Virus record (IMG/VR): IMGVR_UViG_3300031673_012789
DNA length: 64,000 nucleotides
Source of the DNA: a virus
Strand: one strand, 5' to 3'
The notes beneath the pieces are model-generated. The model was not told the DNA's origin. It did not search any database and saw nothing but the letters and a program-made list of their open reading frames with translations. Made by a program: the position numbers and the translations under genes. Positions 3,915 through 53,966 of this stretch are shown here, one piece after another. The stretch's first letter is position 1. The number at the start of each line of letters is the position of its first letter.

Positions 3915-4892
3915 TTAAAAATCTTTTATATAATTGTCAATAAATTTCAATACTTCATTAAGTCTTCGCTCATAGCTTCCTGGATAATAAAAGCTATTTA
4001 CTACAATTCCAGCTTCACTAAAATTATTTAGGTGAATACCAGCTAATTCGTCTCTTCTAGCTTTATTAAACCGTGTTCCATCATCTACATAAGGAGCATC
4101 AGCAGACAAATAAATGTATTTGTCCATTTCATTTGCATCTTCTATCCAAAAAGGATATTTAATTTTTCTTCCAAATAAAAATTTAGCATATCCTTGAGTA
4201 ATTGTTAAATCAGTGTCAACAAACAAAAGTTTATTCGCAGATCGAGTATATTTCAATATATGTTTAGCATGTTCAACACCAACTAGTTTTAAGTCCTCGA
4301 TTGTGCATTCAGCTGAATCCGGAACCAATTCTCTCCCTAGTTCAGGACACCAAACTGTATTATAAAGTTTTGCTAATTCCTGAGCCATCATAGTTTTTCC
4401 TGTTGATTCAGTTCCAACAATAGCAATTTTTTTAACAAAATAATCCTTAGCATAATTGTTCAAATAATCCCAGTGCTTAAATGGTTTACTTCTTATCATT
4501 GTAGCACTTATAGGAACTATTGTCCTTTCTTGGTTAAACACCCAGTTTTCTGCTCCCATGCAAGTTGCAAAATGCTTTCCATAATCTTCAGAACTGAATA
4601 CTCTAGAAAATTGTCCAAAATTCTCAAGAATATGTTTACCCCACCAAGCACTCAGATCCTCAAAACTTAAGTCATCCGGATGGTTTATATTATCCCCTTT
4701 CACTTCTATTTTAGGGTCATGCAGATAGGTCTGAGTGACCCAGCTTAAACGGTGTTTCAATGGAATTGGTTCACCTTCTCTAGCACCAACAAGTATTGTA
4801 AGATAATCACAATTACTTTTAGCGTATTCAATTAAGGCCTCATGACCTTTATGAAATGGCATAAATTTTCCTATAATGAATCCTTTTATCAT
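3915..4892 (-). CDS. nadR: NadR-like bifunctional NMN adenylyltransferase / ribosylnicotinamide kinase
   Basis: N-terminal GKFMPFHKGH matches the (H/T)xGH nucleotidyltransferase motif. C-terminal GTESTGKT is the Walker A of the RNK domain. 4-nt overlap with the upstream macro-domain gene. Confidence 0.7.
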   Translation of the reverse strand: MIKGFIIGKFMPFHKGHEALIEYAKSNCDYLTILVGAREGEPIPLKHRLSWVTQTYLHDPKIEVKGDNINHPDDLSFEDLSAWWGKHILENFGQFSRVFSSEDYGKHFATCMGAENWVFNQERTIVPISATMIRSKPFKHWDYLNNYAKDYFVKKIAIVGTESTGKTMMAQELAKLYNTVWCPELGRELVPDSAECTIEDLKLVGVEHAKHILKYTRSANKLLFVDTDLTITQGYAKFLFGRKIKYPFWIEDANEMDKYIYLSADAPYVDDGTRFNKARRDELAGIHLNNFSEAGIVVNSFYYPGSYERRLNEVLKFIDNYIKDF

Positions 4893-5368
4893 TTATTTTT
4901 ATCATAATGAACTATTGTGACATCCATGTCTTTAAGTTCTATTTCAATAATCTTTTTAATTTTTTCCCAATCTCCTCCAGCTAAACCTGACCCAATTAAA
5001 GGAATACCGATAGATTTCCTTTTATAATTATGATTAATTTTTCTCATTACTAATTTTATAGCATCATAATCAACTGGTTTTTTATCTCCATCTTCATGAT
5101 TAGGTCCATATCTATATTGAGTATAAGCATTTATGATAGTTAACCAACCTTTATCATTTATTTCAAGATCTGCAAAAGTATAATTTCCAAGTTTCATTAT
5201 ATCTCCCTTACGAGTTCTTTGATCTGCTCGCCAGGCATCCGGAATTCTTTCTTTAATTTCTTTTGCTATACCAGCACCCATTGTACAGAAACAATTACAT
5301 CCATGAACTATTATATCAAAATGGCCTTCTAGACCCAGATCAATTAAGTTTCCTTTTATTTCTTTCAT
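4889..5368 (-). CDS. macro domain (ADP-ribose binding/processing) protein
   Basis: HGCNCFCTMGAGIAKEI plus a G-rich loop IGIPLIGSGLAGG are typical of Macro/Appr-1-p processing domains. Operonic with the nadR-like gene. Confidence 0.65.
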   Translation of the reverse strand: MKEIKGNLIDLGLEGHFDIIVHGCNCFCTMGAGIAKEIKERIPDAWRADQRTRKGDIMKLGNYTFADLEINDKGWLTIINAYTQYRYGPNHEDGDKKPVDYDAIKLVMRKINHNYKRKSIGIPLIGSGLAGGDWEKIKKIIEIELKDMDVTIVHYDKNK

Positions 5369-5473
5369 TATATGATTTTATATCGGGATTTAAGGACTTT
5401 CATTTCATTTTTTTCGTCATTTACAAATAGCACTATTGCAGCTTGTTTATAAGGATCTAATGACCATGCAATA

Positions 5474-5773
5474 TCAGTTGGTTCTACGTTTTTTGTTCTT
5501 TTCTTTCTTCCGTTTAGATTCAGATCCTTCGGACCCAAAATCAATACTCCGTTTGTAAGTTTCATAATTTTTTGATGTTATTGAATATGTTGAATCTTTT
5601 ACTGTCATGTAATATCCATCGACCATTTCTACCCGGTCAAAATATAAAACCTCTATATTGACATTATATTCTATCATAAATGGATGAATATTTTCCCAAT
5701 TCGTTTTTTGAACTGTATAATCTGTTATGACTGCAAAGCCTAACAGTATTCCTAACCATAATCCACTTAGCAT
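5474..5773 (-). CDS. hypothetical membrane-anchored protein; overlaps out-of-frame ORF 5368..5565
   Basis: N-terminal TM helix LSGLWLGILLGFAVI. The two ORFs overlap by 92 nt in different frames, so a frameshift is possible. Confidence 0.35.
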   Translation of the reverse strand: MLSGLWLGILLGFAVITDYTVQKTNWENIHPFMIEYNVNIEVLYFDRVEMVDGYYMTVKDSTYSITSKNYETYKRSIDFGSEGSESKRKKEKNKKRRTN

Positions 5774-7734
5774 TAGAATTTATATTTAAGTGTTACTAAT
5801 CCATTTGTTTTAGCCATTACAAAATATAAAGGATCTCCGTCATATCCCATAATAGCATTTCCAAGAATTAATTCATTGGTGATATTATTTAAGTTAGCTT
5901 GTAATGATATCCTTTTGAATTTTAATCCTGTATAAGCATTCAATGTTGTATATGATGGTAGTGTATGATCATTAGCAAAATCTATATAGCTATCACCATT
6001 ATATCTTACATTTAGACCAACATAAAACCAATCCTTTAGGTTATATTTAACATCAGTACTAATTATCACCGAAGGTGTTAAAACTGGCTGAAATGTTTGA
6101 TCATTTTCTTTTATTCTATTATATGAAATATTTCCAACTAATATGAATTCTAAGCCATTAAACATCTTATAACTTCCATTAATTTCTACACCACTTCTAA
6201 ATGAATTATCTACATTTTGATGAAGCAAAATTCCGTTTGGACCATATTGTCCATTAAGAACTATTTCATTTTTGAAATTCATATAATACAAGTTAGTGTT
6301 TAATGATAATCCATCTTTGCTATATTTGAATCCCAATTCATTATCAAGAGCAGTTTCTGGTACAGTTGGATTATAAGCAGTTGAATCATAATCATCCCAA
6401 CCCATAAACAAATCGGTCCTTGTTGGTTCCCTATTAGTTCTTCCAATTCCATAATAAATGTTGGAATAAGTTCCAGTCCTTACAGTAATACCTGCTGACC
6501 AATTAAGGAAGCTATATTTTTGTGATTCAAAAGGTATAATACCATCATAAGAGAATATGCTGTAACGGTATTGTACATCTCCATAGATTGACAAGTATTT
6601 AGTTTTAACTTCACCTTTAGCGTATGGCGAAACTTCATTCCTAGCTCCATTATTATAATAAGCTTTATCTCCATTATAATAACCTTCATGGTCTCTATTA
6701 TAAGTATATGCGCTTACTCCATAATTTGTACTCAACCAATCTCCTGCTTTCAAATTGTAATTTATAACAGTTCCAAACCAATTTGCTTTAAGAGCAATTC
6801 TATTCATTAAATCTCCATAATTCAAACTAGGATCAAAATGAGCTATATCTGTATCATACCAACCTTTTAAATACGTATGATAAACAATTATTTTCAATCC
6901 ATATTTATCCCAATGTACTTGGTTATGAATATACAAGAAATCATCAGTTTCATCTGGTGTATTCGAATTATATCTTGGGTCTTTATAAATTGAATCAATT
7001 GGTTCTCCTAACCAACCCATACCATTTCTTTGTTTTCCAATAAATCCATAGAGAGTAAAATCTTTAACTTTACCACCATAAAAAGTAGACCATGAATTAT
7101 TTGATGTGTTATATTTAAAACCTTGTGTACTTCCATAAGATCCATTAATAAAGAAATTTGAAGTAGATACGCCACCACTAGCATTGAAAGTTCCAAATGA
7201 TCCCATGGATAATTCAGAATTCAAAGAAAATTTATTTGGAAATTCTATAAAGTTAAAATTTATACTTCCACCATAAGAAGATACACCAGGTTTCGACATC
7301 CCAGCTCCTCTAATTACTTGAACATTATCAACTGCTCCAAGAAAATTGTAATAATTATTGTAGTAAATTCCCTGATCTTCTGGTTCATTCATTGGAACTC
7401 CGTTAAATGTTGAATTAATTCGAGTTTGATCAATCCCTCTCATTCTATAATAAATGTAGCCACTTCCCATACCATTATCAGAATAATAAGTCATGGAAGG
7501 TGTTTTAGATAATAAAACTGCTGGTTCTGTGGATCCTAACCTTAAATCGATAGATTTTTTATTAATATTTGTAAAAGAAAATGGTGTTTCCTTTACTGCT
7601 GAATATGGACCCGTTATTATCACTTCTTTTACATGGATAGTGTCGATTGCCCATAAATTTTCATAAGCCGGATCTTGAGCAGATAATGTAATACCTGCTA
7701 TAAATAGTAACAATATAATAAATAAATTTTTCAT
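5773..7734 (-). CDS. TonB-dependent outer-membrane receptor-like protein
   Basis: Signal peptide MKNLFIILLLFIAGITLSAQ. Plug-domain motif YRMRGIDQTRINSTFNGVPMNEPED. Long Tyr/Gly/Asn-rich beta-barrel region with C-terminal aromatic residue (..LKYKF). Confidence 0.6.
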   Translation of the reverse strand: MKNLFIILLLFIAGITLSAQDPAYENLWAIDTIHVKEVIITGPYSAVKETPFSFTNINKKSIDLRLGSTEPAVLLSKTPSMTYYSDNGMGSGYIYYRMRGIDQTRINSTFNGVPMNEPEDQGIYYNNYYNFLGAVDNVQVIRGAGMSKPGVSSYGGSINFNFIEFPNKFSLNSELSMGSFGTFNASGGVSTSNFFINGSYGSTQGFKYNTSNNSWSTFYGGKVKDFTLYGFIGKQRNGMGWLGEPIDSIYKDPRYNSNTPDETDDFLYIHNQVHWDKYGLKIIVYHTYLKGWYDTDIAHFDPSLNYGDLMNRIALKANWFGTVINYNLKAGDWLSTNYGVSAYTYNRDHEGYYNGDKAYYNNGARNEVSPYAKGEVKTKYLSIYGDVQYRYSIFSYDGIIPFESQKYSFLNWSAGITVRTGTYSNIYYGIGRTNREPTRTDLFMGWDDYDSTAYNPTVPETALDNELGFKYSKDGLSLNTNLYYMNFKNEIVLNGQYGPNGILLHQNVDNSFRSGVEINGSYKMFNGLEFILVGNISYNRIKENDQTFQPVLTPSVIISTDVKYNLKDWFYVGLNVRYNGDSYIDFANDHTLPSYTTLNAYTGLKFKRISLQANLNNITNELILGNAIMGYDGDPLYFVMAKTNGLVTLKYKF

Positions 7735-7817
7735 AACTTTTTCTTAACAATTTTTGTGAAACCTTTTTTAAATTCACCATATAAAAAGTACTGAACGCTA
7801 GTGAAAGTACTATCTTC

Positions 7818-8270
7818 TTATTTAATAATATTCTCTTTTAACATCTCTAATCCATGATAAATCCCTACTTCTAAAGCTATCTCATAATCATCATATGTTG
7901 GCTGACTTCTGAATTTATCCAATTTATGTAATCTAGCATAGTCTTTACCGCTTAGTTTCATATTATAGGCATGGGAATCCCATTTTTTTACATTTGGTCT
8001 GAATCCAACAAAAACATTAATTTGATGTTCATTTCTTAACCAAGATTGTAAGGCATATATTGATGGCCTACTGCAATAATAATTAAACCCTTCCGGAATT
8101 AGACCAGACCATTCGTCAGATATTATTCCCGGGAGAATTTTTCCATCTTTAGTTTCATATTGTTCAATAGCAAAACATTCTGGAGATTGATCTGGATATC
8201 CAAGTTCATGAGCTAAATAAGCAGTTCCAATATTAACTAACTTATCACTATATTCATTGTGGGTTTTCAT
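7818..8270 (-). CDS. hypothetical protein (150 aa)
   Basis: ORF track. Operonic overlap with 8267..8557. Confidence 0.4.
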   Translation of the reverse strand: MKTHNEYSDKLVNIGTAYLAHELGYPDQSPECFAIEQYETKDGKILPGIISDEWSGLIPEGFNYYCSRPSIYALQSWLRNEHQINVFVGFRPNVKKWDSHAYNMKLSGKDYARLHKLDKFRSQPTYDDYEIALEVGIYHGLEMLKENIIK

Positions 8271-8557
8271 TGTTCATAAATCTTAACAAGAGTATCTCTA
8301 AGAGCTCCTTCAAAAATTTTTTTATCAACTTTTTCAAATTCCTCACCAAAATTCTGTCGACAGAATTCAATATGATTTTCGCGTAAAGTATTAACTAATG
8401 CTCCATCAGTAACATTTATATGTAATACTCTATTTTTATCTTGACGATAATAATGGGTTCCACCTTCATCAATACGTCTAAAACACGCTCCTATTTCATC
8501 GGTGCTATCAGGATTTTTATATCCTACACAAGTTACAATTTTTTGATTAACGTCCAT
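8267..8557 (-). CDS. hypothetical protein (96 aa)
   Basis: ORF track. Confidence 0.4.
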   Translation of the reverse strand: MDVNQKIVTCVGYKNPDSTDEIGACFRRIDEGGTHYYRQDKNRVLHINVTDGALVNTLRENHIEFCRQNFGEEFEKVDKKIFEGALRDTLVKIYEQ

Positions 8558-8558
8558 T

Positions 8559-9734
8559 TTATTTTATATTTAGTACATATTTAGCAATTTCAATTTCTTT
8601 TTTATCTCCAGTATGCTTTCCTTCTGCATCTGATAATTTAATACATGGATGCCAATCTTCTCCTTCGGGTTTAGCTGATATCATTTTAACAACCATATTA
8701 AGAGGTGTTACACCAACATCATTAGAGAAGTTAGTTCCAATACCAAAAGAACATTTGATTTTTCCTCTACAAAAATCTTTTATTTCAACTGCTTTTTCAG
8801 GATTTAATGAATCAGAAAAAACAATTGCTTTGGCTTTTGGATCAATCCCTAATTTCTCATAGTGATTAATTACCTTTTGAGCAAATTCGATGGGATCCCC
8901 AGAATCATGACGAACACCATCATATAATTTAGCAAATTTCTTATCAAATGCATTAAAGAAAACTTCGGTTGTAAATGTATCTGATAAAGCAATACCAAGA
9001 TCTCCACGAAAAACATCAGTCCAATTTTCCATAGCTAAAGAATTAGCCATTTTGTAACCATATTTTGCAGCATGAAACATAAACCATTCATGAGCATGAG
9101 TACCAATTGGTGTAATGTTGTATTTATGAGCAAGGTGAACGTTAGAAGTTCCAACAAAATTACTATTTCCAACTCCTCCTTTCATTTGTTCAACAAATTC
9201 ATCTTGAATTTGATATGAAAATCTTCTCCTTGTTGAAAAACAAGCAAAATGCATCCCATTCAATCTAAAAAGTTGCTTTTTCTGATTATTATTTTCATAT
9301 CTTACATTTTCCTGCCATGGATGTTCTCCAGCCATTAAAAAATATAATTCAGAAATAAGAGCCATTAACGGAACTTCCCATAAAATAGTTCTATGCCAAT
9401 ATCCTGTGATTGTAATTCTAAGACCACCTTTATCTTGAATGATCCCAATTTCTGAAGAATCATATCGATATCCATAAAGGAAATCTAAATAAGTTGGATC
9501 AAGGTAATAACATTTCTTATTTAACCAAGATTTTTCTTCTTTAGTTAAAGCAAGATTTTCCATCATTTTGATTTGCGATCTAAGTTCTTCAGCAAATCCT
9601 TCCGGAAATTGAGTTTTTCCCCTGTTGATGAATGCATATTTTACCTTAGCTCTCGGAAATTTCTTCACAACAGCTTGCTGCATAGTCAATTTATAAAGAT
9701 CATTGTCTAAGATGTCATTAATTATTTGCTTCAT
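8559..9734 (-). CDS. pncB: nicotinate phosphoribosyltransferase (PncB family; NAMPT/Namat-like alternative not excluded)
   Basis: N-terminal DNDLYKLTMQQA matches the PncB signature DAYKLHMQQA. Length 391 aa fits PncB. Confidence 0.7.
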   Translation of the reverse strand: MKQIINDILDNDLYKLTMQQAVVKKFPRAKVKYAFINRGKTQFPEGFAEELRSQIKMMENLALTKEEKSWLNKKCYYLDPTYLDFLYGYRYDSSEIGIIQDKGGLRITITGYWHRTILWEVPLMALISELYFLMAGEHPWQENVRYENNNQKKQLFRLNGMHFACFSTRRRFSYQIQDEFVEQMKGGVGNSNFVGTSNVHLAHKYNITPIGTHAHEWFMFHAAKYGYKMANSLAMENWTDVFRGDLGIALSDTFTTEVFFNAFDKKFAKLYDGVRHDSGDPIEFAQKVINHYEKLGIDPKAKAIVFSDSLNPEKAVEIKDFCRGKIKCSFGIGTNFSNDVGVTPLNMVVKMISAKPEGEDWHPCIKLSDAEGKHTGDKKEIEIAKYVLNIK

Positions 9735-9737
9735 GAT

Positions 9738-10070
9738 TTATTTCTTTCCTGTTAAAACCCAATAATCACATCCTTGGCTTGGGCCTTCATATAAATCTAC
9801 TTTATCTTCCCATCCGGCAGCATGATATCTTCTTGCAAGTTCTGATCTCATTAATTTTTTTCTTGTTTCTTTAATATGAATTTGTCTATCTTCACCTGGA
9901 AGATAATCAAATCTCACAATACTAAACTCTATAGAAACTGAGTTATTATCAAAATCCCTTATAATTTTCTCATCAATATATTTTTCAATTTTATCGATGA
10001 TTCTTAATTCTTCTGCAGACAAAGGATCCTCCTTGAGTTTCTTCTTTATTTCACTATACTTTATTGCCAT
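9738..10070 (-). CDS. hypothetical protein (110 aa)
   Basis: ORF track. Confidence 0.4.
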   Translation of the reverse strand: MAIKYSEIKKKLKEDPLSAEELRIIDKIEKYIDEKIIRDFDNNSVSIEFSIVRFDYLPGEDRQIHIKETRKKLMRSELARRYHAAGWEDKVDLYEGPSQGCDYWVLTGKK

Positions 10071-10329
10071 TTTCTTTTACTTTTACATCCTTAAAATATC
10101 TCATTGTGATAAATGTTCCAACACCTGCTCCTAACATTGAAGATAAAAGAAGCCAGTTATTGTCAACATATCCTATTGTTATTTTTGCAAACAATATCCA
10201 AGCTATCATATTCATCATAGTAGCTAAGTATGTTTGATTTCTAGCAATTGATTTAATTACATAAATATAAACAATATGCCAAACTACTGTTGCAAAGAAT
10301 GCTATTACATGTGGCCAAAATATTTCCAT
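10054..10329 (-). CDS. small integral membrane protein (3 predicted TM helices)
   Basis: Hydrophobic stretches across 91 aa. Sits inside the NAD island. Confidence 0.4.
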   Translation of the reverse strand: MEIFWPHVIAFFATVVWHIVYIYVIKSIARNQTYLATMMNMIAWILFAKITIGYVDNNWLLLSSMLGAGVGTFITMRYFKDVKVKENGNKV

Positions 10330-10330
10330 T

Positions 10331-11260
10331 TTAAAAAATTAAAGATCCTTCGTCATCCCAAGCCCAATAGAGTTTTCCATTTTCTCTTAGAATAACATAT
10401 TTTAGATTTTCGTTTGATTCATTTTTAGCCATACAATCATCATCAATTGCTACAGACATTCCATCAATTGAATAAACCCAAGCTCCAAAAGGAAGTTTAT
10501 ATCCTCGCTTTCCTTCTCCACCTTTCCTATATTCATATCCTGATGCATGTTCATGCCAAACTTCTCCAGCAATGTATTCTTCAATTTGAGTAATTACTTT
10601 GTCTTTACATGCATTTTCATCTACCCATTCAGATTCTGGAGTATCATATCCACCTCCATAAAGTTTACGGAAAGTAATTTGATCAGCCCCAAGTTCTTTA
10701 CATCTCATTAAAATATCTTCTGGATATTTGTTATCATAAACATTTGTCATATTCAAAGACAAACGAAGATTAAATCCCTGGTCTTTTATAAATTTGCATA
10801 ATTCGGGTAAATCTCTTCTTAATTTTTTAGGAGCCCCTATAATATTCCAGTTGTTTTCGGAATCGAAAATATCAGAAACTGAAAGAGAAATTGTGTTAAC
10901 ACCGAGTGCCCTTAGAAATACTGCATTAAAATATACTGCTTCTCCACTTCTTATATGTTCGGAAACTTGGTCAAGTAAAACTCCGGTAGTTTGAAGTTCT
11001 ATATTTGGAAAAGGATTATTTTCGTCTATTAGAACTCCTTCAAGCAAATGTAAAAATGTTGAATTTTGAAGCGGTTCTCCTGTTCCTGTTAAAATTAAGG
11101 TAGTTACATTAGCTATAGCAGCTCTTTTTATTCTTTTTCGATAAGCTATTTCATCAAAATTATTACAGTAAGGATTATCGTGCATTTTTGATACACAAAA
11201 CTTACAATTATTTACACATGCTTTTGTGGGTACTACTACGGAAATTGATTGTATGTCCAT
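10331..11260 (-). CDS. radical SAM domain protein
   Basis: CVNNCKFC is a CxxxCxxC motif near the N-terminus. Gly-rich LTGTGEP SAM-binding motif. Confidence 0.6.
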   Translation of the reverse strand: MDIQSISVVVPTKACVNNCKFCVSKMHDNPYCNNFDEIAYRKRIKRAAIANVTTLILTGTGEPLQNSTFLHLLEGVLIDENNPFPNIELQTTGVLLDQVSEHIRSGEAVYFNAVFLRALGVNTISLSVSDIFDSENNWNIIGAPKKLRRDLPELCKFIKDQGFNLRLSLNMTNVYDNKYPEDILMRCKELGADQITFRKLYGGGYDTPESEWVDENACKDKVITQIEEYIAGEVWHEHASGYEYRKGGEGKRGYKLPFGAWVYSIDGMSVAIDDDCMAKNESNENLKYVILRENGKLYWAWDDEGSLIF

Positions 11261-11334
11261 TCTGTTAGATTTAATTATCTTTAATACAGATGTAATATAA
11301 CCAAAATACTTGTGATAAAAAAATATTTTGGCAA

Positions 11335-11790
11335 CTATTTTTTAATTTTATCTATTCTTTTTTGAAGGATATCTGCTTTTTTATAGTCTTCATTTTTTAA
11401 TGCTTCCTTTAAACGATCCTCTAATTCATTGATTTCGTATTTTGTCAAAGATTCATTAAATATATCAGGTTTTGAAAGAGAATATGGATCAACATAATAT
11501 GACCATCCTTCATCCCACATATCAAGAGGAAGATTAATAGGACCAGAACTTTGCATCATCATTTTAAAGAAACCACCAATACCAGTCATTTCATCTTCGT
11601 CTCCTCTTCTATTGTCTCTTTCTACATAAACACACCCATTAGCCACTCCTAAAAAAATAAGTGCAATACCAATATAAGCTCTGTCTCTTATATCTTCTTC
11701 TTCAAGTCCTGGAATAGGTTTAGAAGGTTGAATTCGGGTTATTAAATCCCCCTTCTTAAAATCATAAATTGACATAGGTGTTTGCTTCAT
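11335..11790 (-). CDS. hypothetical protein (151 aa)
   Basis: ORF track. Confidence 0.4.
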   Translation of the reverse strand: MKQTPMSIYDFKKGDLITRIQPSKPIPGLEEEDIRDRAYIGIALIFLGVANGCVYVERDNRRGDEDEMTGIGGFFKMMMQSSGPINLPLDMWDEGWSYYVDPYSLSKPDIFNESLTKYEINELEDRLKEALKNEDYKKADILQKRIDKIKK

Positions 11791-11792
11791 AA

Positions 11793-12296
11793 CTAATATA
11801 ATTTTTCAAGTTCATCCCAAAATTCTTGGTATCTTCCATCAAACAAATTGGATTTGAACTTTGGCCACTCATTTTTATATTTATTATACATTGAACTTTC
11901 AGTTCTTTTGCTATACTTAGTATTATAATATCTATCGCAGAGTTTTACGAAAGTAGCATGTTCAAATGCTTTAATTCCTTTATAATATTTTTCATTTGCT
12001 CTTTCATCTCGGTTTCTTCCTTTTTCATTCCAAAGAGCATATGAATATTCAGCAGCATTTTCCCCTAAAACTTTTTTAAGATCATTATAAGTTTCATGAG
12101 TATCTTCCAAAACATCATGAACCCAACATCCAACTAAAACTTTAGAAATTTCTAAGTTTGGAAGTAGATGAGAAAATCTTTTTGCAACATCAACTACCCC
12201 TCGTAAATGTACAGTATAGGGTAAGCCATCAAATGTTTGATTTACATTCCTATGGGCTTTTGTTGCATATATTTCTGCTTTATAAACTAAATTCAT
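11793..12296 (-). CDS. HD-domain hydrolase, RelA/SpoT-type (small alarmone hydrolase-like)
   Basis: H..HLRGVVDV ... WVHDVLEDT matches the SpoT/Mesh1 HD motif (H, HD, ..HDvvEDT). Confidence 0.55.
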   Translation of the reverse strand: MNLVYKAEIYATKAHRNVNQTFDGLPYTVHLRGVVDVAKRFSHLLPNLEISKVLVGCWVHDVLEDTHETYNDLKKVLGENAAEYSYALWNEKGRNRDERANEKYYKGIKAFEHATFVKLCDRYYNTKYSKRTESSMYNKYKNEWPKFKSNLFDGRYQEFWDELEKLY

Positions 12297-12943
12297 TACA
12301 TTAAATTAAACAAAGGAAGTTCCCAAGATTCAATTACTTTTATGTTATTGTCTAAAAATTCCTCCATTGTTTGTTTTACACCATCTCCTGAAATTGCTCT
12401 TGTTCCATCAAGAACAACAACAGTATTAAATCCTTTTTTAGCCGCATCAAGTGCTGTATCTTTAACACAAAAATCTAAAGCTAAACCACAAACAAATACT
12501 TGATGAACTTCCTTTTCTTTTAAAAATTCTTCCAATTCTTCTGCTCCAAATCCAGAATATGGATGTTCTTTTTCTTTCATCCCCTTTTTAAAGATATAAA
12601 AATCTCCTTTAATTAATCCAAGATCTATATCTCCATGTAAATCCGCTCCCTTAGTATTTTGCACACAATGAACTGGCCATAATGTATCTTCTTTACCTTT
12701 AGAGTTTGTATATTTTTCAAAGGGTTGTTTACCTTCTTTAGGGGAAGCAAATGCCTCCATTTTTTCTGGATGCCAATCTTTAGTAAAAATAACTAAGTTA
12801 AACCGTTTTAACAAATCATTAATAACTGGTATAATTTCATCTCCTCCTTTTACGGCCAAGGCTCCGCCTTGTTTATTTTCATATTCGTATTCAGAAGCAG
12901 GCATGAAATCATATTGAGCATCGACCACAATTAAAGCCTTCAT
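12296..12943 (-). CDS. pncA: nicotinamidase / isochorismatase-family hydrolase (PncA)
   Basis: VVDAQYDF (Asp), FTKDWH (Lys) and FVCGLALDFCV (Cys) correspond to the PncA catalytic triad context. Confidence 0.65.
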   Translation of the reverse strand: MKALIVVDAQYDFMPASEYEYENKQGGALAVKGGDEIIPVINDLLKRFNLVIFTKDWHPEKMEAFASPKEGKQPFEKYTNSKGKEDTLWPVHCVQNTKGADLHGDIDLGLIKGDFYIFKKGMKEKEHPYSGFGAEELEEFLKEKEVHQVFVCGLALDFCVKDTALDAAKKGFNTVVVLDGTRAISGDGVKQTMEEFLDNNIKVIESWELPLFNLM

Positions 12944-13024
12944 ATTTTTCTATTTTTAAGTTACATATAAATATAACAAAAATCTATGAATCTAGGAAAT
13001 AAAATGATTAAAAGTTTGTTAAAT

Positions 13025-13315
13025 TTATTTTTTATTGTTAGCTTTTCTAGCTAAAAATTCTCGCGTTTGCCTTCTATTAAGTTCCCTCATTTGTTCAGGA
13101 GTAAGCTGACCAAACTCTTCATATGCTTTAAAGACCTTGCTACTAGAAAAACTATAAGCAGGAATCCATAAAGGAAAAGTTAACCAGATTAAAAAGGATC
13201 TTATAAACCAAGCCGGGTAAACAACTATTTTTCCTAATTTTGTATAATCATCCCAATCTTCTTGAATATGGGTTTCATATAACCATAATATAAATTTTAT
13301 CAAATGTAGTTTCAT
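13025..13315 (-). CDS. hypothetical membrane protein (96 aa)
   Basis: ORF track. Hydrophobic segments. Confidence 0.4.
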   Translation of the reverse strand: MKLHLIKFILWLYETHIQEDWDDYTKLGKIVVYPAWFIRSFLIWLTFPLWIPAYSFSSSKVFKAYEEFGQLTPEQMRELNRRQTREFLARKANNKK

Positions 13316-13319
13316 GTTA

Positions 13320-14204
13320 TTATTTATTATATATGTTATCAGGTATACCTATAATTTTATTCCAAGGAATATTATAAGGATTCTGTCTTTTAAATTCTGA
13401 TTTTAAATGTCGTTGAATTACAGGATCTGTTAAATCATTGAGTTTACTTGATATATAGGTCATCAATCTTAAATCAACTAATTTATACCCATCTCTTGAG
13501 TTTCCTTCCCATCCTGGTAAAATTTGATCTAAATCAGTTTTCGAAATTCCTAGTCCATCAGTAGCATCAGCATTGATAACATCCATGATAACATCATAAG
13601 GATGTCCTTGAAGTTGACCTTTCCACCCAGTATATTCTTTTTTAGCAATATATTCTGTCATTTCATAAACTTCAGTTTTCCAGAGATTTTGAATCATTCC
13701 ATAATCTCCAACATCACCATGTAATGTCCAAAAACCAAGAAGATATTCTGTGTAATTATCAGTGGAAAGTACCATTCCATTGTTCCCACCAGCAATATCA
13801 TAAAGAAGAATCATACGAATTCTTGCTTTTATATTTCCATTCAAGATTTGATTGCCATAGTCTTCTCCGTCAGGATAATTTTCCGGAAGAACATTATGAT
13901 TATCATAAGCTACATCGGAAAGTTTATTAAATGCTGCTTTAATAGAAGTTTCTTTAAAATCAGTACAAAATAAGTTACCAATTTCTTTAGCTCTTGAATT
14001 TTCACCTTTGGAATTTGTATTTGAAGGTAATGACCGACCAATCAACGGGATATTTAATTCTTCACAGACTGGTTTGGCCAGTAATGCACAGAGGGTGCTA
14101 TCGATGCCCCCAGATACACCAAGTACTAAGGATTGTAAGTTACCTTTACTTATGTAGTCTTTAAGCTCAGACCTAATGTTTTTAACCGCTAATTCGTAGT
14201 TCAT
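13320..14204 (-). CDS. nadE: NAD+ synthetase (NadE, PP-loop ATP pyrophosphatase; could be the NaMN-amidating type)
   Basis: SGGIDS PP-loop motif (LVLGVSGGIDSTL). Length 294 aa. Confidence 0.75.
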   Translation of the reverse strand: MNYELAVKNIRSELKDYISKGNLQSLVLGVSGGIDSTLCALLAKPVCEELNIPLIGRSLPSNTNSKGENSRAKEIGNLFCTDFKETSIKAAFNKLSDVAYDNHNVLPENYPDGEDYGNQILNGNIKARIRMILLYDIAGGNNGMVLSTDNYTEYLLGFWTLHGDVGDYGMIQNLWKTEVYEMTEYIAKKEYTGWKGQLQGHPYDVIMDVINADATDGLGISKTDLDQILPGWEGNSRDGYKLVDLRLMTYISSKLNDLTDPVIQRHLKSEFKRQNPYNIPWNKIIGIPDNIYNK

Positions 14205-14410
14205 GCTCCGTTGTTTTTTATTTTATATAAAATTTTTTCATCACTTTCGCAACCTGGATAAATTCCACCATCTTCAGTCATAGCATCAAGAGCCCCAAAC
14301 ATATATGCCCTATTTTCTAGGGCATTATCAGATTCTGTAGATGAAGTACCACGTAATTCATCTTTAAATCCTTTCATATAATATTCTAATAAACTTTCAT
14401 CACTAACCAT
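14201..14410 (-). CDS. hypothetical protein (69 aa)
   Basis: ORF track. 4-nt overlap with nadE. Confidence 0.35.
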   Translation of the reverse strand: MVSDESLLEYYMKGFKDELRGTSSTESDNALENRAYMFGALDAMTEDGGIYPGCESDEKILYKIKNNGA

Positions 14411-14471
14411 AACCGTTTCCTTTATTACATTAGTAATATAACCAAAATAATCGACACGAAAAAATTTTGTG

Positions 14472-14906
14472 TTATTTTATTTCTTTGAGTTTTTGAAATA
14501 ATTCTTCTTTGTTGAAAAATACATCTTCAGCAAACTGATACATGACATCCCATCTTTCAGGTTCTTCGTCAAAAAGAATAAAACATCTTTTTCCACTTCC
14601 AATCATATATCCTAATTCTAAATGTCCACTTTTTCCAGCTGGCATATAAAGAATCCCAATATCTGATCTATCAATATGAAATTTGTCAAATTCGTATACA
14701 TGTTTACCAGCCCAATTATTAAGTGCTTGCTTATATGAACTACCTCGAACTTTTTCATAATTTCTCCAATAATCATCGGCCTCGGGGCCAGGACTAAACC
14801 AATCATCAAATACTTCGAAACCTAATTCCCTAATTTCTTTTGCCATGTGGGGAATTTGGTCATTTCTAAGACTGCCTATTATGTAAATAACTTTTTGTTT
14901 ATTCAT
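14472..14906 (-). CDS. nucleoside 2-deoxyribosyltransferase-like (NDT/DNPH1-fold) protein
   Basis: VIYIIGSLRN ... AGKSGHLELGYMIG resembles the NDT family Rossmann start and catalytic-Glu loop. Confidence 0.5.
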   Translation of the reverse strand: MNKQKVIYIIGSLRNDQIPHMAKEIRELGFEVFDDWFSPGPEADDYWRNYEKVRGSSYKQALNNWAGKHVYEFDKFHIDRSDIGILYMPAGKSGHLELGYMIGSGKRCFILFDEEPERWDVMYQFAEDVFFNKEELFQKLKEIK

Positions 14907-17704: not shown

Positions 17705-19108
17705 TTACTTTCCATTATTTCCTGTTCCTTTTTTCACAATAGTTCCCCATCCTTCAACACCTCTTATATATTGCCAATTTCCTTTTACAGAAAACCATGC
17801 AATCATAGGATAAATAAGAGGTTCAACAAATGCAACAGCTAATAATTTAATTACATCCCTTTTTCTCTCATATTTATGGAATGTTAATTCTTCAAATAAT
17901 ACAGACCATGAAGACATAAATACAGCAAAAGCATAAATAAAGAGATATAATAATCCAAAGAATCCCCAATTAATTAAACCAGTTGCGGCTAAGTAAATAG
18001 TAAATCCAAATCCAACAAAAGCAAGAAGAGGTGCTAACCATTCAAAGAATAACCAAAATGGATATCCAAGTAATCCTAATTTTCCATATTTTTTATTTAA
18101 GAACATCACTTTATGTTTTCTAAGTGCGTACACTAGTCCTCTAGCCCACCTTGCTCTTTGGCTTTCTAAAGATTTATAATCAGAAGGAACTTCAGTCCAA
18201 CATAATGGGTCAGGAATATAAGTAACTTCATATTTTTCATCTTTTTCAGCCATGTATCTTCTCATACGAATAACCATTTCCATATCTTCTCCAATAGCTT
18301 TAGTATCATACCCTCCTGAATTAATAAGTATTTCCCTATCAAATAATCCCATTGCACCAGATATAAGAAGCAATCCATCTAATTGTGACCAAGCCATTCT
18401 ACCAAGTAAAAATGCCCTAGTATATTCAAGAGCTTGCCATCTCGGTAAAAATTTTTGTGGTAAATTAATTTTTTTGATAACACCATTTTCAACTTCACAT
18501 GAATTCATAATTCGAATTACACCACCAGTTCCAATAACTTTTTTGTCTTTTTCTTCAAGGAATGGCTTTACTAATTTAGTGATTGAATCAGGTTCTATCA
18601 CACAATCAGCATCCATAATCAAAACAAGGTCATTCCTACAAATATTGATACCTGCATTACTAGCATCAGCTTTACATCCACCATTAACTTTATCTACAAC
18701 AGTCAATTTTGAAAATTCCTTATTTCTTGATTTGTAAATTCCTTTTATTTTTTTACAAGGGATTCTATATTCAAAAAAGTAATTAGCTTTTGATAGCTTA
18801 AACGTATCTTTTAAGAGTTTAAATGTATCATCAGTAGACCCATCATTAACAATAATGACCTCAAAATTTCGATAATGTAATTTCATAAGTGTTTTAACAC
18901 TGTCTATAATGTTTGCACTTTCATTATAAGCTGGAGCAATAATAGATACTGATGGTGATAATGGTGAAGTTGCCACGGCATTGTAATCTACATAACTATT
19001 TTTTCTTAGGTAATTTCTTAATTTTTTAACCGAGAAATATCCTAGTACAAAATAACAAATAAAAATAACTAGTGTAAATAAAAACACAAAATTTATAAAG
19101 AACCACAT
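17705..19108 (-). CDS. family-2 processive glycosyltransferase (PgaC/IcaA/cellulose-synthase-like)
   Basis: IIVNDGSTDDT, DADCV and QRARWARG (QxxRW) motifs. N- and C-terminal TM helices. Confidence 0.7.
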   Translation of the reverse strand: MWFFINFVFLFTLVIFICYFVLGYFSVKKLRNYLRKNSYVDYNAVATSPLSPSVSIIAPAYNESANIIDSVKTLMKLHYRNFEVIIVNDGSTDDTFKLLKDTFKLSKANYFFEYRIPCKKIKGIYKSRNKEFSKLTVVDKVNGGCKADASNAGINICRNDLVLIMDADCVIEPDSITKLVKPFLEEKDKKVIGTGGVIRIMNSCEVENGVIKKINLPQKFLPRWQALEYTRAFLLGRMAWSQLDGLLLISGAMGLFDREILINSGGYDTKAIGEDMEMVIRMRRYMAEKDEKYEVTYIPDPLCWTEVPSDYKSLESQRARWARGLVYALRKHKVMFLNKKYGKLGLLGYPFWLFFEWLAPLLAFVGFGFTIYLAATGLINWGFFGLLYLFIYAFAVFMSSWSVLFEELTFHKYERKRDVIKLLAVAFVEPLIYPMIAWFSVKGNWQYIRGVEGWGTIVKKGTGNNGK

Positions 19109-51495: not shown

Positions 51496-52044
51496 TCATA
51501 TCAAATAATTTTGAAATTTCTCAACTGCCATTTCTATTCTTTCATCATGGTTAAAAGCCCATTGTTTTCCACCTTGAAATACTTCAGATATTTCCATCCA
51601 TTTCACTTGACTTATTTCTTTATCTTTAAATTGTTCAACTTCTCTTGGAAGTTTCATAAACTCATAAATAAAAATATATGTTAATGAAACATTTTGTTTT
51701 GCATCTGTTGTTGGATCAGTATGAGTATAAAATGGTTGCCCATCATTATCAAATACTAAATCCTTTTTATGATCAGGAATATGAAAAGAAGTTTCCTCAT
51801 AAGTTTCTCTTATAATACCTTCCATACCATTTTCATCCCAATCCATATATCCCGAAACAACTGCCCATTTGTTGGGTTCGTCCATCATCGCTGATCTTTT
51901 TTCAGTCAATACATAAATATTATCACTATTATATTCGGTAGCGAGTATAACAGCAACAATAGCTGGAGAACGAGATAACCAAACTTTTCGACCATCTTTC
52001 AATTCTACTTCTTCGTTTCCTCTATTTTTAAATGTGGGTTTCAT
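51496..52044 (-). CDS. NUDIX hydrolase
   Basis: Nudix box GMEGIIRETYEETS (GX5EX7REUXEEXGU). Confidence 0.7.
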   Translation of the reverse strand: MKPTFKNRGNEEVELKDGRKVWLSRSPAIVAVILATEYNSDNIYVLTEKRSAMMDEPNKWAVVSGYMDWDENGMEGIIRETYEETSFHIPDHKKDLVFDNDGQPFYTHTDPTTDAKQNVSLTYIFIYEFMKLPREVEQFKDKEISQVKWMEISEVFQGGKQWAFNHDERIEMAVEKFQNYLI

Positions 52045-52868: not shown

Positions 52869-53966
52869 TTATTGGTACCTCAGCTGTCTGATTGCTATTA
52901 ATAATGTATTAACTAAATCTGCATCAACCTTGTTTGGAAGATCAGAATTATTAAACAATTCATCAAGGCCTTCAATTTTTTCTTCAGCTTCATAAAGAAG
53001 CTTGTGATAATCATATTCACCTTTGCGAATTGCCATTAGAGTTTCAATTTCTTCAGGAGGTCTACGAACAATAATTTCTCCATTAGCAATTTCAGTTGCC
53101 ATGTTCAATAGACGGAAAGTATGCATCATGTTTTTTGAGTCATAATTCTTTCCATGTTCCTTGTTCATCTTAAAACGATCTTCATTTCTGTTTTCCAACC
53201 ATTCCTTATATTCTGCATATCTCTTGCAATGAGTTGAATAAGCATCCTTGTTAAAAGTTAAGTATGCTTCAACCATTAATCCCTTAAGAATAGAAGTAAG
53301 TTGAACATCATTAGCCTTTTCAATATCTCCAACAATTCCACTTCCTTCGTGTCTTTCCGGAAGTCTGTACAATGCATAAATGTCATGAGCATGGTCAACC
53401 TTCGCAAGACCAAAATCTTGTTGAGTATAAACATTAACAGTATTTTGACTATATTTCTTAAGCCATTCATGAAGAGAAACAGTCCCTCCTCGCTCAAGAA
53501 TATAACAAAAATCAAGAACATTCTTACGAACCATTTGTTCTTCTTCCCAATTAATCTTTTTGTTATATCCTCTTGCCTTCTTAATTTGTCCAATTGCATA
53601 ACCAGCAAATGAGTTCTTACATTGCTTAGTAATAAAATTCTTCTTTTGTTCAAGAATTATATCAAAGATAGGATCTTTATAAACAATACAATCTTCCGGT
53701 GCATTAAGCAATTCAAGAATGTTAGGGTTATTAGTTCTAACTAATTCTAAGAATCTCTTAATTTCATAGAAAACAATATCATTTTTGTTATCGGCAACTT
53801 GATCAACATAACCAAATCCATAGATATCATCCTTTGGTTGAATGTAAATACCCCTGATATCTGTGTCGGAAGTTGGCATGGAAGTTCCATAAGCATGGGA
53901 TCCCATGATTGCCTCAAAAATAATTAAATTTTTTTCTCTTAGTGTATCAATTGTATATTGTCTCAT
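52869..53966 (-). CDS. Pol-beta-superfamily nucleotidyltransferase (possible tRNA nucleotidyltransferase/RNA-repair NTase)
   Basis: IMGSHAYGTSMPTSDTDIRGIY is a GS..G...SDxD NTase-fold signature. Encoded two genes away from a Thg1-like enzyme. Confidence 0.5.
   Translation of the reverse strand: MRQYTIDTLREKNLIIFEAIMGSHAYGTSMPTSDTDIRGIYIQPKDDIYGFGYVDQVADNKNDIVFYEIKRFLELVRTNNPNILELLNAPEDCIVYKDPIFDIILEQKKNFITKQCKNSFAGYAIGQIKKARGYNKKINWEEEQMVRKNVLDFCYILERGGTVSLHEWLKKYSQNTVNVYTQQDFGLAKVDHAHDIYALYRLPERHEGSGIVGDIEKANDVQLTSILKGLMVEAYLTFNKDAYSTHCKRYAEYKEWLENRNEDRFKMNKEHGKNYDSKNMMHTFRLLNMATEIANGEIIVRRPPEEIETLMAIRKGEYDYHKLLYEAEEKIEGLDELFNNSDLPNKVDADLVNTLLIAIRQLRYQ

Follow-up and report, generated by a model that had tools for sequence, protein, structure and literature searches.

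Restoration of NAD+ by phages is already known, experimentally from the NARP1, NARP2, NARP3 and NARP1-AP systems and bioinformatically from the Preiss-Handler clusters of jumbo phages. NARP3, encoded by Escherichia phage TrudiRoth (Bas30_86/87), consists of a PnuC-like nicotinamide riboside (NR) transporter and a NadR lacking the helix-turn-helix (HTH) domain; it makes NAD+ from NR and overcomes both Sir2-HerA and DSR1 (PMC13464706). In NARP1-AP, the Poa1p-like Macro protein Adpp dephosphorylates ADP-ribose (ADPR)-1''-phosphate and defeats RES-type NAD+ phosphorylases (bioRxiv 10.64898/2026.01.28.702374). The 'NAD-jumbo phages', described bioinformatically and infecting mostly Bacteroidota, carry clustered pncB-nadD-nadE or nadR/nadM/pnuC genes (PMC11662467), and a 2022 survey of viral NAD systems reported NadV, NadM and NadR only. 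Here we describe an island of NAD+ genes in IMG/VR virus record IMGVR_UViG_3300031673_012789, a 64,000-nucleotide stretch of DNA that is called the window throughout, and that we read as part of the genome of a huge phage with a Bacteroidota host. New here are the coupling of a TonB-dependent outer-membrane receptor (TBDR) to NadR, the joining of a deamidating branch with an NR branch and a Macro gene, and the correspondence of the whole with salvage loci of Bacteroidota.

We consider it probable that the island is a two-branch NAD+ replenishment module of Bacteroidota huge phages, drawing NadD and PnuC from outside the window. In the deamidating branch, nicotinamide (Nam) from NADase defences and other NAD+ consumers would be converted to nicotinate by PncA and then to nicotinate mononucleotide (NaMN) by PncB; NadD, from the host or from a phage gene elsewhere, would form nicotinate adenine dinucleotide (NaAD), which NadE would amidate to NAD+. 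In the NR branch, the TBDR would take external NR or an NR precursor across the outer membrane, PnuC (the host's in this case, phage-encoded in relatives) would carry NR across the inner membrane, and the NadR-like enzyme, like that of NARP3, would trap NR as nicotinamide mononucleotide (NMN) and adenylate this to NAD+. By-products or adducts of the ADP-ribose type (ADPR-1''-phosphate, or ADP-ribosylated DNA or protein) would be processed by the Macro protein, whose gene is translationally coupled to nadR.

The island had been singled out by an original prediction made from the letters of the sequence. A check of open reading frames (ORFs) found the NAD genes listed there in place and on the minus strand, and profile searches agreed with the identities given to PncA, PncB, NadE, the NadR-like protein, the Macro protein, the radical S-adenosylmethionine enzyme (rSAM) and a small alarmone-hydrolase-like HD protein. 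That prediction had itself proposed assignment of the 391-aa and 325-aa proteins to unrelated families as the test of its reading; they came out as PncB and NadR-like, and the catalytic residues that it singled out, the PncA cysteine and the NadE PP-loop, are intact. Every gene on its list is present at the coordinates given, but the list left out the largest gene of the island, the TBDR. The features are collected below; numbered loci (L010 and the like) are explained in the paragraph after the table.

Table. Features of the NAD+ island and of the distal NUDIX gene, with window coordinates and the matches on which each name is based.
Feature	Length (aa)	Position	Strand	Matches and conservation
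NadR-like NMN adenylyltransferase/ribosylnicotinamide kinase	325	3915..4892	-	AAA_28 1e-20; TIGR01526 4.4e-54; phrog_3462 2.5e-70
Macro-domain protein, DarG/TARG1/Poa1p/BT1257 clade	159	4889..5368	-	PF01661 1.2e-6; phrog_335 2.6e-57
TonB-dependent outer-membrane receptor (TBDR)	653	5773..7734	-	Plug 1.5e-10; barrel 1.2e-23
orf150		7818..8270	-	phrog_12005 3.6e-12; no Pfam match; kept in L002, L009, L010
orf96		8267..8557	-	no Pfam match; kept in L002, L009, L010
PncB, nicotinate phosphoribosyltransferase (predicted: nicotinate + phosphoribosyl pyrophosphate (PRPP) to NaMN)	391	8559..9734	-	NAPRTase_N 5.8e-37; NAPRTase 5.3e-57
orf110		9738..10070	-	no family match
TM91, membrane protein	91	10054..10329	-	79-81% identical in L002, L012; no family match
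Radical SAM enzyme (rSAM), MoaA/viperin-like fold	309	10331..11260	-	PF04055 2.7e-9
151-aa ORF	151	11335..11790	-	kept in L001, L002, L197, L198, L204; weak C-terminal UVR-like motif, PF02151 E 0.0024, below cutoff
Small SpoT/Mesh1-type HD hydrolase (small alarmone hydrolase-like)	167	11793..12296	-	NF008303 4e-6; phrog_990 1e-24
PncA, nicotinamidase (predicted: Nam to nicotinate)	215	12296..12943	-	PF00857 5.8e-24; NF008623 4.6e-36
TM96, ORF between nadE and pncA	96	13025..13315	-	50-55% identical in L001-L004
NadE, single-domain (NH3-type) NAD synthetase family	294	13320..14204	-	PF02540 1.5e-34; TIGR00552 112.7 bits, above cutoff 63.65
NDT-like protein		14472..14906	-	PF05014 E 0.0015, below cutoff; phrog_12607 6.3e-17
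Distal NUDIX hydrolase		51496..52044	-	PF00293 7.5e-11; 37 kb from island

Synteny was assessed with tblastn, for which every island protein was run against loci retrieved with NadE, PncB and the TBDR; these loci are referred to by number. In the window the gaps between genes from 14410 down to 3713 are 83 nt at most. A recurring order was found, running from NadE through a 96-aa ORF, PncA, the HD gene, a 151-aa ORF, the rSAM gene, a 91-aa membrane ORF and a 110-aa ORF, and then through PncB, two ORFs, the TBDR and Macro to NadR. The syntenic proteins are 45-81% identical among IMG/VR contigs, contigs of 330-405 kb included. The complete module set occurs in L010 and partial sets in many other loci, 376 kb and 405 kb contigs among them. 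Because the same gene order recurs in many contigs, the island is not a chance cluster. In viral loci further removed, a core of PncB/NadE/PncA persists alongside different partners (such as GroEL, NUDIX and IMPDH).

The TBDR has a signal peptide, a Plug domain, a 22-strand-type barrel and a C-terminal phenylalanine, and its cellular homologs (36-41% identity) all come from Bacteroidota-type genomes. In three genomes with precomputed annotation, what follows the receptor gene is either PnuC (PF04973) with a NadR-like gene or NadR by itself, and the cassette lies next to NrtR, NAMPT, NADAR or KptA. Among 80 cellular loci, NadR was present in 71 and PnuC in 57, mainly in the order TBDR-PnuC-NadR; when only loci with at least 2 kb of downstream sequence were counted, NadR was found in 68 of 73, and together with PnuC in 51 of the 73. 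The association extends to viral contigs with this receptor, 28 of 32 having NadR downstream and 19 having PnuC as well. Megaphages show the orders TBDR-PnuC-NadR (LR745206), PncB-NadE-TBDR-PnuC-NadR-PncA (LR756501, 735 kb) and NUDIX-TBDR-PnuC-NadR (LR756502). In the window the TBDR and NadR genes are co-directional, with the Macro gene and two small ORFs in between. From its gene neighbourhood the receptor is predicted to be an importer of NR or a related NAD precursor. By its architecture, 653 aa and no SusD partner, it is not SusC-like; its homolog in LR745206 and Mar_Mega_1 was named SusC in a preprint that suggested carbohydrate uptake. A search of the literature joining TonB-dependent receptors with PnuC, NadR or NR found no relevant paper, and the link of this receptor to NAD precursors appears to be undescribed in the searchable literature.

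Neither tblastn with PnuC probes from bacteria and phages nor a Pfam scan detected PnuC in the 64 kb, which leaves the inner-membrane step to the host or to a gene lying beyond the window. Relatives carry the gene, next to the TBDR in L201 and also in LR745206, LR756501 and LR756502. The small membrane proteins TM91 and TM96 were considered as 'half-PnuC' NR transporters and rejected: hhalign against 56 PnuC sequences gave probabilities below 1% and shallow alignments, and neither protein had a Pfam or PHROG match.

The NadR-like protein consists of a CTP_transf_like domain (residues 6-134) and an AAA_28 domain (155-310), matches its family from residue 3 onward and has no HTH. Its motifs GKFMPFHKGH8, ISATMIR128 and GTESTGKT160 are intact. 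The closest solved structure is that of NARP3 Bas30_86 (9X6F/9X6H, E 2.8e-39), with which the window protein shares K10, F11, F110, S112, D115, V139, I141, K163, K168 and D275. NadR alone would span the conversion of NR to NMN and on to NAD+, one full salvage pathway of the kind that defines an 'NAD-jumbo phage'; the Preiss-Handler set of the window is without NadD. That definition also asks for a phage genome above 200 kb; the window is 64 kb of a contig of at least 70.6 kb, and its relatives measure 330-429 kb.

The stop codon of the Macro gene and the start codon of nadR overlap as ATGA at 4889..4892, as had been pointed out from the sequence. Macro matched DarG-like profiles (NF048014 3e-13; PADLOC DarG 7e-14) and, in the PDB, BT1257 (2e-8), SCO6735, Poa1p (6lfu, 4.8e-6) and DarG (5m31). 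Of the DarG model the macro domain alone matches (positions 4-147 of 338; score 49.7 bits, cutoff 250), and no DarT gene was recognised in the window scans. Macro genes lie beside NAD genes in L010, L200-L202 and L025/26/29 as well as in bacterial L050 and L036. The substrate could be ADPR-1''-phosphate or, equally, ADP-ribosylated DNA or protein. Between the TBDR and Macro genes, two small ORFs of 65 aa and 99 aa (5368..5773, minus strand) overlap by 92 nt, and at least one of the two starts is probably mis-set; the 65-aa ORF is kept in L010 (53% identity).

The genes of the deamidating branch have likewise kept their signature residues. PncB exceeds curated cutoffs (435 bits against 269.55 for TIGR01514; 482 bits against 379 for NF003704), and its GTHAHE211 motif is intact and found in 23 of 23 viral homologs. 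As a clear PncB equivalog, the 391-aa protein was ruled out as the Namat of NARP1 or as a NAMPT. In PncA, the motifs D8, DWH56, PVHC90 and DFCV157 are present, preserving the Asp-Lys-Cys triad and the metal site, and the best PDB matches are all nicotinamidases (2wt9 6.8e-33, 1ilw, 2h0r, 3pl1). In NadE, the PP-loop SGGIDS at residue 31 is intact.

The gene that would link NaMN to NaAD is not in the window. As had been noted from the sequence, no separate NadD was detected within the 64 kb (Pfam, tblastn and hidden Markov model (HMM) searches); the same searches ruled out a hidden NadD among the unknown ORFs, the best window match to an HMM built from four phage NadDs being the N-terminus of NadR (E 0.07). 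Relatives do encode the enzyme. L010, the closest sibling with full synteny, has a MazG-NadD fusion (TIGR00482 110 bits, cutoff 112.45) between the 150-aa ORF and the TBDR, whose window counterparts are 83 bp apart, and L201 has the same fusion. L134, a 330 kb contig with PncB-NadE, has a NadD-like gene at a distance of about 165 kb, and other viral loci (e.g., L017) show the canonical order PncB-NUDIX-NadD-NadE. Since siblings have NadD, even far from the module, little can be concluded from its absence in 64 kb about the genome as a whole, and the host offers a NadD anyway.

Bacterial locus L050, on a 271 kb contig of a Bacteroidales metagenome-assembled genome, encodes (with identity to the phage proteins in brackets) a PncA-like protein, PncB (54%), NADAR, Macro (42%) and NadE (45%), followed by NrtR, the TBDR (39%), PnuC, NadR (37%) and a convergent rSAM gene (39%, E 1e-57). 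L036, on a chromosome-scale contig of 7.6 Mb, has NUDIX, NAMPT, Macro, NADAR, TBDR, NadR and KptA. Some cellular TBDR-NadR loci (L030, L036 and others) also contain NAMPT, a 300-aa NUDIX protein, NADAR, Macro and KptA/Tpt1, and such Bacteroidota loci look like a combined supra-operon for NAD salvage and ADP-ribose processing. Judged by homology, the phage module has its parts in common with these loci. It shares the order and orientation of the Bacteroidota TBDR-PnuC-NadR operons, some of which are NrtR-associated, and its NadR is 34-38% identical to the NadRs encoded there beside the receptor; L050 combines Macro, NUDIX, PncB, NadE and rSAM, and L036 has both Macro and NADAR. Unlike those operons, the phage copy is without PnuC and the NrtR regulator. 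Preiss-Handler genes joined to the TBDR cassette were found in 1 of 80 cellular loci and are routine in the phage lineage.

All substantial ORFs of the window are on the minus strand, the GC content is ~31%, and most ORFs are orphans or PHROG-family matches. A tRNA array is present, counted at 17-20 genes overall and at about 16-19 within 36077..38825 (minus strand). Capsid and terminase genes were not identified in the 64-kb window. A JGI contig 70,587 bp long encodes the exact island proteins, and the island genes have relatives on IMG/VR viral contigs that reach 330-429 kb as well as in the published huge phages LR756500 and LR756501. The only DNA match to LR756500.1 falls in pncB (window 8678..9108), and that genome has in common only PncB, NadE, NUDIX and the HD gene, all dispersed. 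A 638-aa cadherin-like repeat protein (28772..30688, minus strand) ends in a C-terminal sorting domain (Por_Secre_tail) of the type IX secretion system (T9SS), which is an independent pointer to a Bacteroidota host; that host assignment thus draws on the T9SS tail, the Bacteroidota homologs of the TBDR and the relatedness to Prevotella Lak phages.

Several points weigh against the two-branch reading. With NadD and PnuC both missing from the window, both branches are incomplete on the sequence at hand, and the earlier description of the gene set as 'unusually complete' is not supported. PncA scores 124.6 bits on NF008623, under the equivalog cutoff of 174, so that its identity as a nicotinamidase rests on the PDB matches and motifs. 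S37, R167 and E230, which are important in the NARP3 NadR, differ in the window protein. Synteny among related phages is by itself no proof that the rSAM, the HD protein and the small ORFs are functionally coupled to the module. Host DNA may have been misclassified as viral in some of the IMG/VR contigs that carry TBDR-PnuC-NadR (31-41% identity), and the cellular origin of L050 is inferred only from its neighbours (NrtR, DUF1304 and TerB). The suggested counter-defence role is argued only by likeness to NARP1-3.

The original prediction had favoured a different route, that of Francisella tularensis (NadE* plus NadM), in which NadE as an NMN synthetase would convert NaMN to NMN and the NMN adenylyltransferase of NadR would complete NAD+, making PncA-PncB-NadE-NadR sufficient without NadD. 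We consider this unlikely: with NadD present in sibling phages, such a route is not required, and it lacks support. There is a likeness in that a NadE-family enzyme occurs with an NMN-preferring adenylyltransferase and no NadD on the sequence at hand; the adenylyltransferase is nonetheless NadR rather than NadM, and phage relatives encode NadD. NMN would be a usable intermediate, since NadR-family NMN adenylyltransferases prefer NMN over NaMN. Also in its favour, NadE belongs to a large, mostly metagenomic, divergent and phage-dominated subfamily, and this NadE type occurs with PncB and no adjacent NadD in many viral loci and in bacterial L050, which also has NadR; several loci with the same NadE, however, have no NadR within 10 kb, sibling L010 (NadE 58% identical) has NadD in its module, and the 330 kb relative encodes it elsewhere. 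There is no sequence evidence for the window NadE as an NMN synthetase: a profile of eight viral NadE proteins scored the Campylobacter NAD synthetase 3p52 at 86.7 bits, 2e18 at 79.4 and 5wp0 at 79.1, and the Francisella NMN synthetase 3FIU no better, at 76.2. The bulky residues Tyr27, Gln133 and Arg236 are implicated in the specificity of the Francisella enzyme (FtNadE*); the two alignable ones, Tyr27 and Gln133, correspond to Gly21 and Gly139 in the window NadE, and both positions vary across the phage family, a comparison to which we give little weight. Because the profile scores are alike and siblings (L010, L201, L134) have NadD, a conventional NadE is favoured, with NaAD as its predicted substrate. 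A still more self-contained scheme, a 'deamidated NARP' running from Nam through nicotinate, NaMN and NMN to NAD+ with NadE as NMN synthetase and no host NadD, and with its own TBDR importer of NR, seems to us quite improbable; if true, a virus would for the first time be seen to encode an outer-membrane transporter for a vitamin, and the TBDR would found a so far unrecognised family of NR-uptake TonB-dependent transporters in Bacteroidota.

The receptor might instead be unrelated to NAD+, a SusC-like carbohydrate or iron importer or a superinfection-exclusion surface protein that merely lies inside the island, and JGI auto-annotation does call its relatives 'iron complex outermembrane receptor'. 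We regard this as very unlikely: the protein has Plug and barrel only and not the ~1000-aa SusC architecture with SusD, NadR stands directly downstream in nearly all of the cellular and viral loci counted above, mostly with PnuC, and LR745206 itself has the order TBDR-PnuC-NadR. A more serious question is the purpose of the module, which may be a general metabolic booster supplying NAD+ for a long replication cycle and for NAD+-consuming phage enzymes, with no specific role against defences. The survey of NAD-jumbo phages argues for such coupling of NAD+ synthesis to NAD+-consuming phage enzymes (PMC11662467); the architecture is host-like, as in ordinary NrtR-regulated salvage loci, and the neighbourhood of the island yielded no recognisable defence or anti-defence gene. 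Against this, the substrate of PncA, nicotinamide, is what NADase effectors release; the NadR's closest characterised relative restores NAD+ against Sir2-HerA and DSR1; and a Macro of the DarG/Poa1p type, counter-defensive in NARP1-AP, is coupled to nadR. Boosting alone is thus possible, though we lean against it, and boosting and counter-defence are not mutually exclusive. That the window is cellular Bacteroidota DNA, and the island an ordinary host salvage locus, is hardly credible even though capsid and terminase genes were not identified and the gene content resembles bacterial L050: the one-strand genes, the low GC content, the tRNA array with its adjoining GOLLD RNA, the mostly orphan or PHROG-matching ORFs and the missing NrtR regulator all speak for a phage, as do the relatives on viral contigs of 330-429 kb and in LR756500 and LR756501.

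Around the two branches lie genes whose part in the proposed module is less direct. The start codon of the HD gene overlaps the pncA stop by 1 nt (TAATG), and the gene lies next to or near PncA/PncB in L001, L002, L005, L012, L018 and L201. The motifs HDVLED60 and DRYYN are present, and the PDB matches are Rel hydrolase domains, the small alarmone hydrolases 6z3n/6z3o and Mesh1. (p)ppGpp or (pp)pApp are possible candidate substrates; since MESH1 has a documented NADPH phosphatase activity, NADP(H) might also be considered, as speculation by analogy.

The rSAM protein had no PDB sequence match. Its AlphaFold2 model (mean confidence score, pLDDT, 84.5) is closest in fold to MoaA and viperin (TM-score about 0.57, 13-17% identity). 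It was rejected as a prokaryotic viperin on finding no PADLOC pVip match, the resemblance to viperin and MoaA being at fold level only. It matches no defence model, and its family comprises ~1,090 uncharacterised proteins. The gene is kept in L001, L002, L005, L013, L113, L197-L200 and L204, and in bacterial L050. The rSAM start in L113, a relative of 376 kb, overlaps the gene for a PP-binding (acyl-carrier-like) protein of 99 aa (13397..14619 of that locus), which may be a clue to the substrate. In L201, the open frame containing the TBDR (6800..8938) begins with a radical-SAM N-terminus (MDIQTISIVVPTKGCVNKCKFC...), which points to the leftover of a truncated rSAM joined in frame to the front of the receptor.

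The original prediction had placed two further genes in the island. The distal NUDIX hydrolase was correctly located and has an intact NUDIX box (G-x5-E-x7-REtyEEtsF); it matches NadM-type Nudix domains weakly, and megaphage LR756502 encodes a homolog with 32% identity to it (E 8e-23) immediately upstream of TBDR-PnuC-NadR, which supports the link drawn earlier, so that the gene is probably connected with the NAD pathway. The NDT-like gene is real as a PHROG match and weak in Pfam; it was dropped as a module member, having no counterpart in any sibling locus, and beside a dCMP deaminase gene it probably fits nucleotide metabolism better than the NAD module.

Elsewhere the window contains features that lie outside the island. 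A GOLLD RNA (RF02032, 162 bits, gathering score 150) lies at 34385..34868 (minus strand). A lone tRNA with a CTA anticodon, of the amber-suppressor type and labelled 'Pyl' by ARAGORN (26482..26555, minus strand), may indicate stop-codon reassignment of the sort known from some huge phages; code 11 reads the island ORFs normally. At 21488..23191, 30771..33224 and 40752..42305 (minus strand) lie genes for a Ro60-like TROVE protein, for a product resembling the major vault protein, with MVP shoulder and Vault repeat, and for a flotillin/SPFH protein; a TROVE gene is also found upstream of the NAD module in L113. A 467-aa family-2 glycosyltransferase with a chitin-synthase-like region (17705..19108, minus strand) is followed by a HEAT-repeat protein. 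A theme of RNA repair and translation outside the island includes RlaP (52869..53966, minus strand), and a batch scan of non-island ORFs found domains of Thg1 tRNA-His guanylyltransferase, PTH2 peptidyl-tRNA hydrolase and LigD 3'-phosphoesterase, together with thioredoxin, YaiO beta-barrel and pyrimidine-dimer glycosylase domains. Sigma-70 promoter-like sites numbered 61, compared with 72 +/- 8.7 in shuffled sequence, a consensus that may not suit a Bacteroidota host, and terminator-like sites were barely more frequent than in shuffled sequence (6 vs 3.8 +/- 2.0).

Experimental work on phage NAD+ reconstitution has so far concerned phages of Proteobacteria and Firmicutes, and the module shows how huge phages of Bacteroidota, the megaphages of gut Prevotella and Bacteroides included, appear to solve the same problem. 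For the bacteria themselves, the TBDR-PnuC-NadR association predicts dedicated TonB-dependent uptake of vitamin B3 vitamers in Bacteroidota, a route that would bear on cross-feeding of NAD precursors in gut communities. The 'SusC-like' receptor of marine and freshwater megaphages likewise gains a new interpretation.

Compared with the described phage systems, the module was right to be set apart, as it originally had been, from NARP1 and NARP2; the NadR branch is nonetheless that of NARP3, and novelty claimed against NARP1 and NARP2 alone has also been overtaken by the Preiss-Handler clusters of jumbo phages (PMC11662467). No Prs-like gene or second NAPRTase-family gene, as would correspond to the Adps and Namat of NARP1, was found among the scanned window ORFs. 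Like NARP2 (NAMPT and an NMN adenylyltransferase, Vibrio phage KVP40), the island would rebuild NAD+ from nicotinamide and PRPP and has an NMN adenylyltransferase as last enzyme. Unlike in NARP2, deamidation by PncA would come first, the phosphoribosyltransferase is of the PncB type (the only one found, NAMPT_N having no match in the window), amidation by NadE would be needed, and the adenylyltransferase is NadR-type rather than NadM-Nudix. With the Adpp of NARP1-AP the island shares a small stand-alone Macro protein with similarity to Poa1p inside a phage NAD+-restoring operon; the window differs in having no Adps/Namat to use ADPR, and because its Macro profiles best on DarG and BT1257, the substrate may instead be an ADP-ribosylated macromolecule. 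The published text on NAD-jumbo phages is silent on TonB-dependent receptors and macro domains and touches on pncA only briefly (PMC11662467), and the window cluster differs in lacking NadD and in having PncA/PncB/NadE in one block with TBDR-Macro-NadR; common to both are huge phages, mostly of Bacteroidota, with clustered pncB, nadE and nadR, and viral relative L017 has PncB-NUDIX-NadD-NadE. Relative to NARP3, the host is a member of the Bacteroidota rather than the Enterobacteriaceae, the cassette has a TBDR in place of PnuC (in relatives, in addition to it), and NadR, only moderately identical to Bas30_86, is embedded with PncA/PncB/NadE and Macro. What the two have in common is an HTH-less bifunctional NadR with NMN adenylyltransferase and ribosylnicotinamide kinase domains, most of the mutation-validated residues of Bas30_86, and the predicted logic of importing NR and turning it into NAD+.

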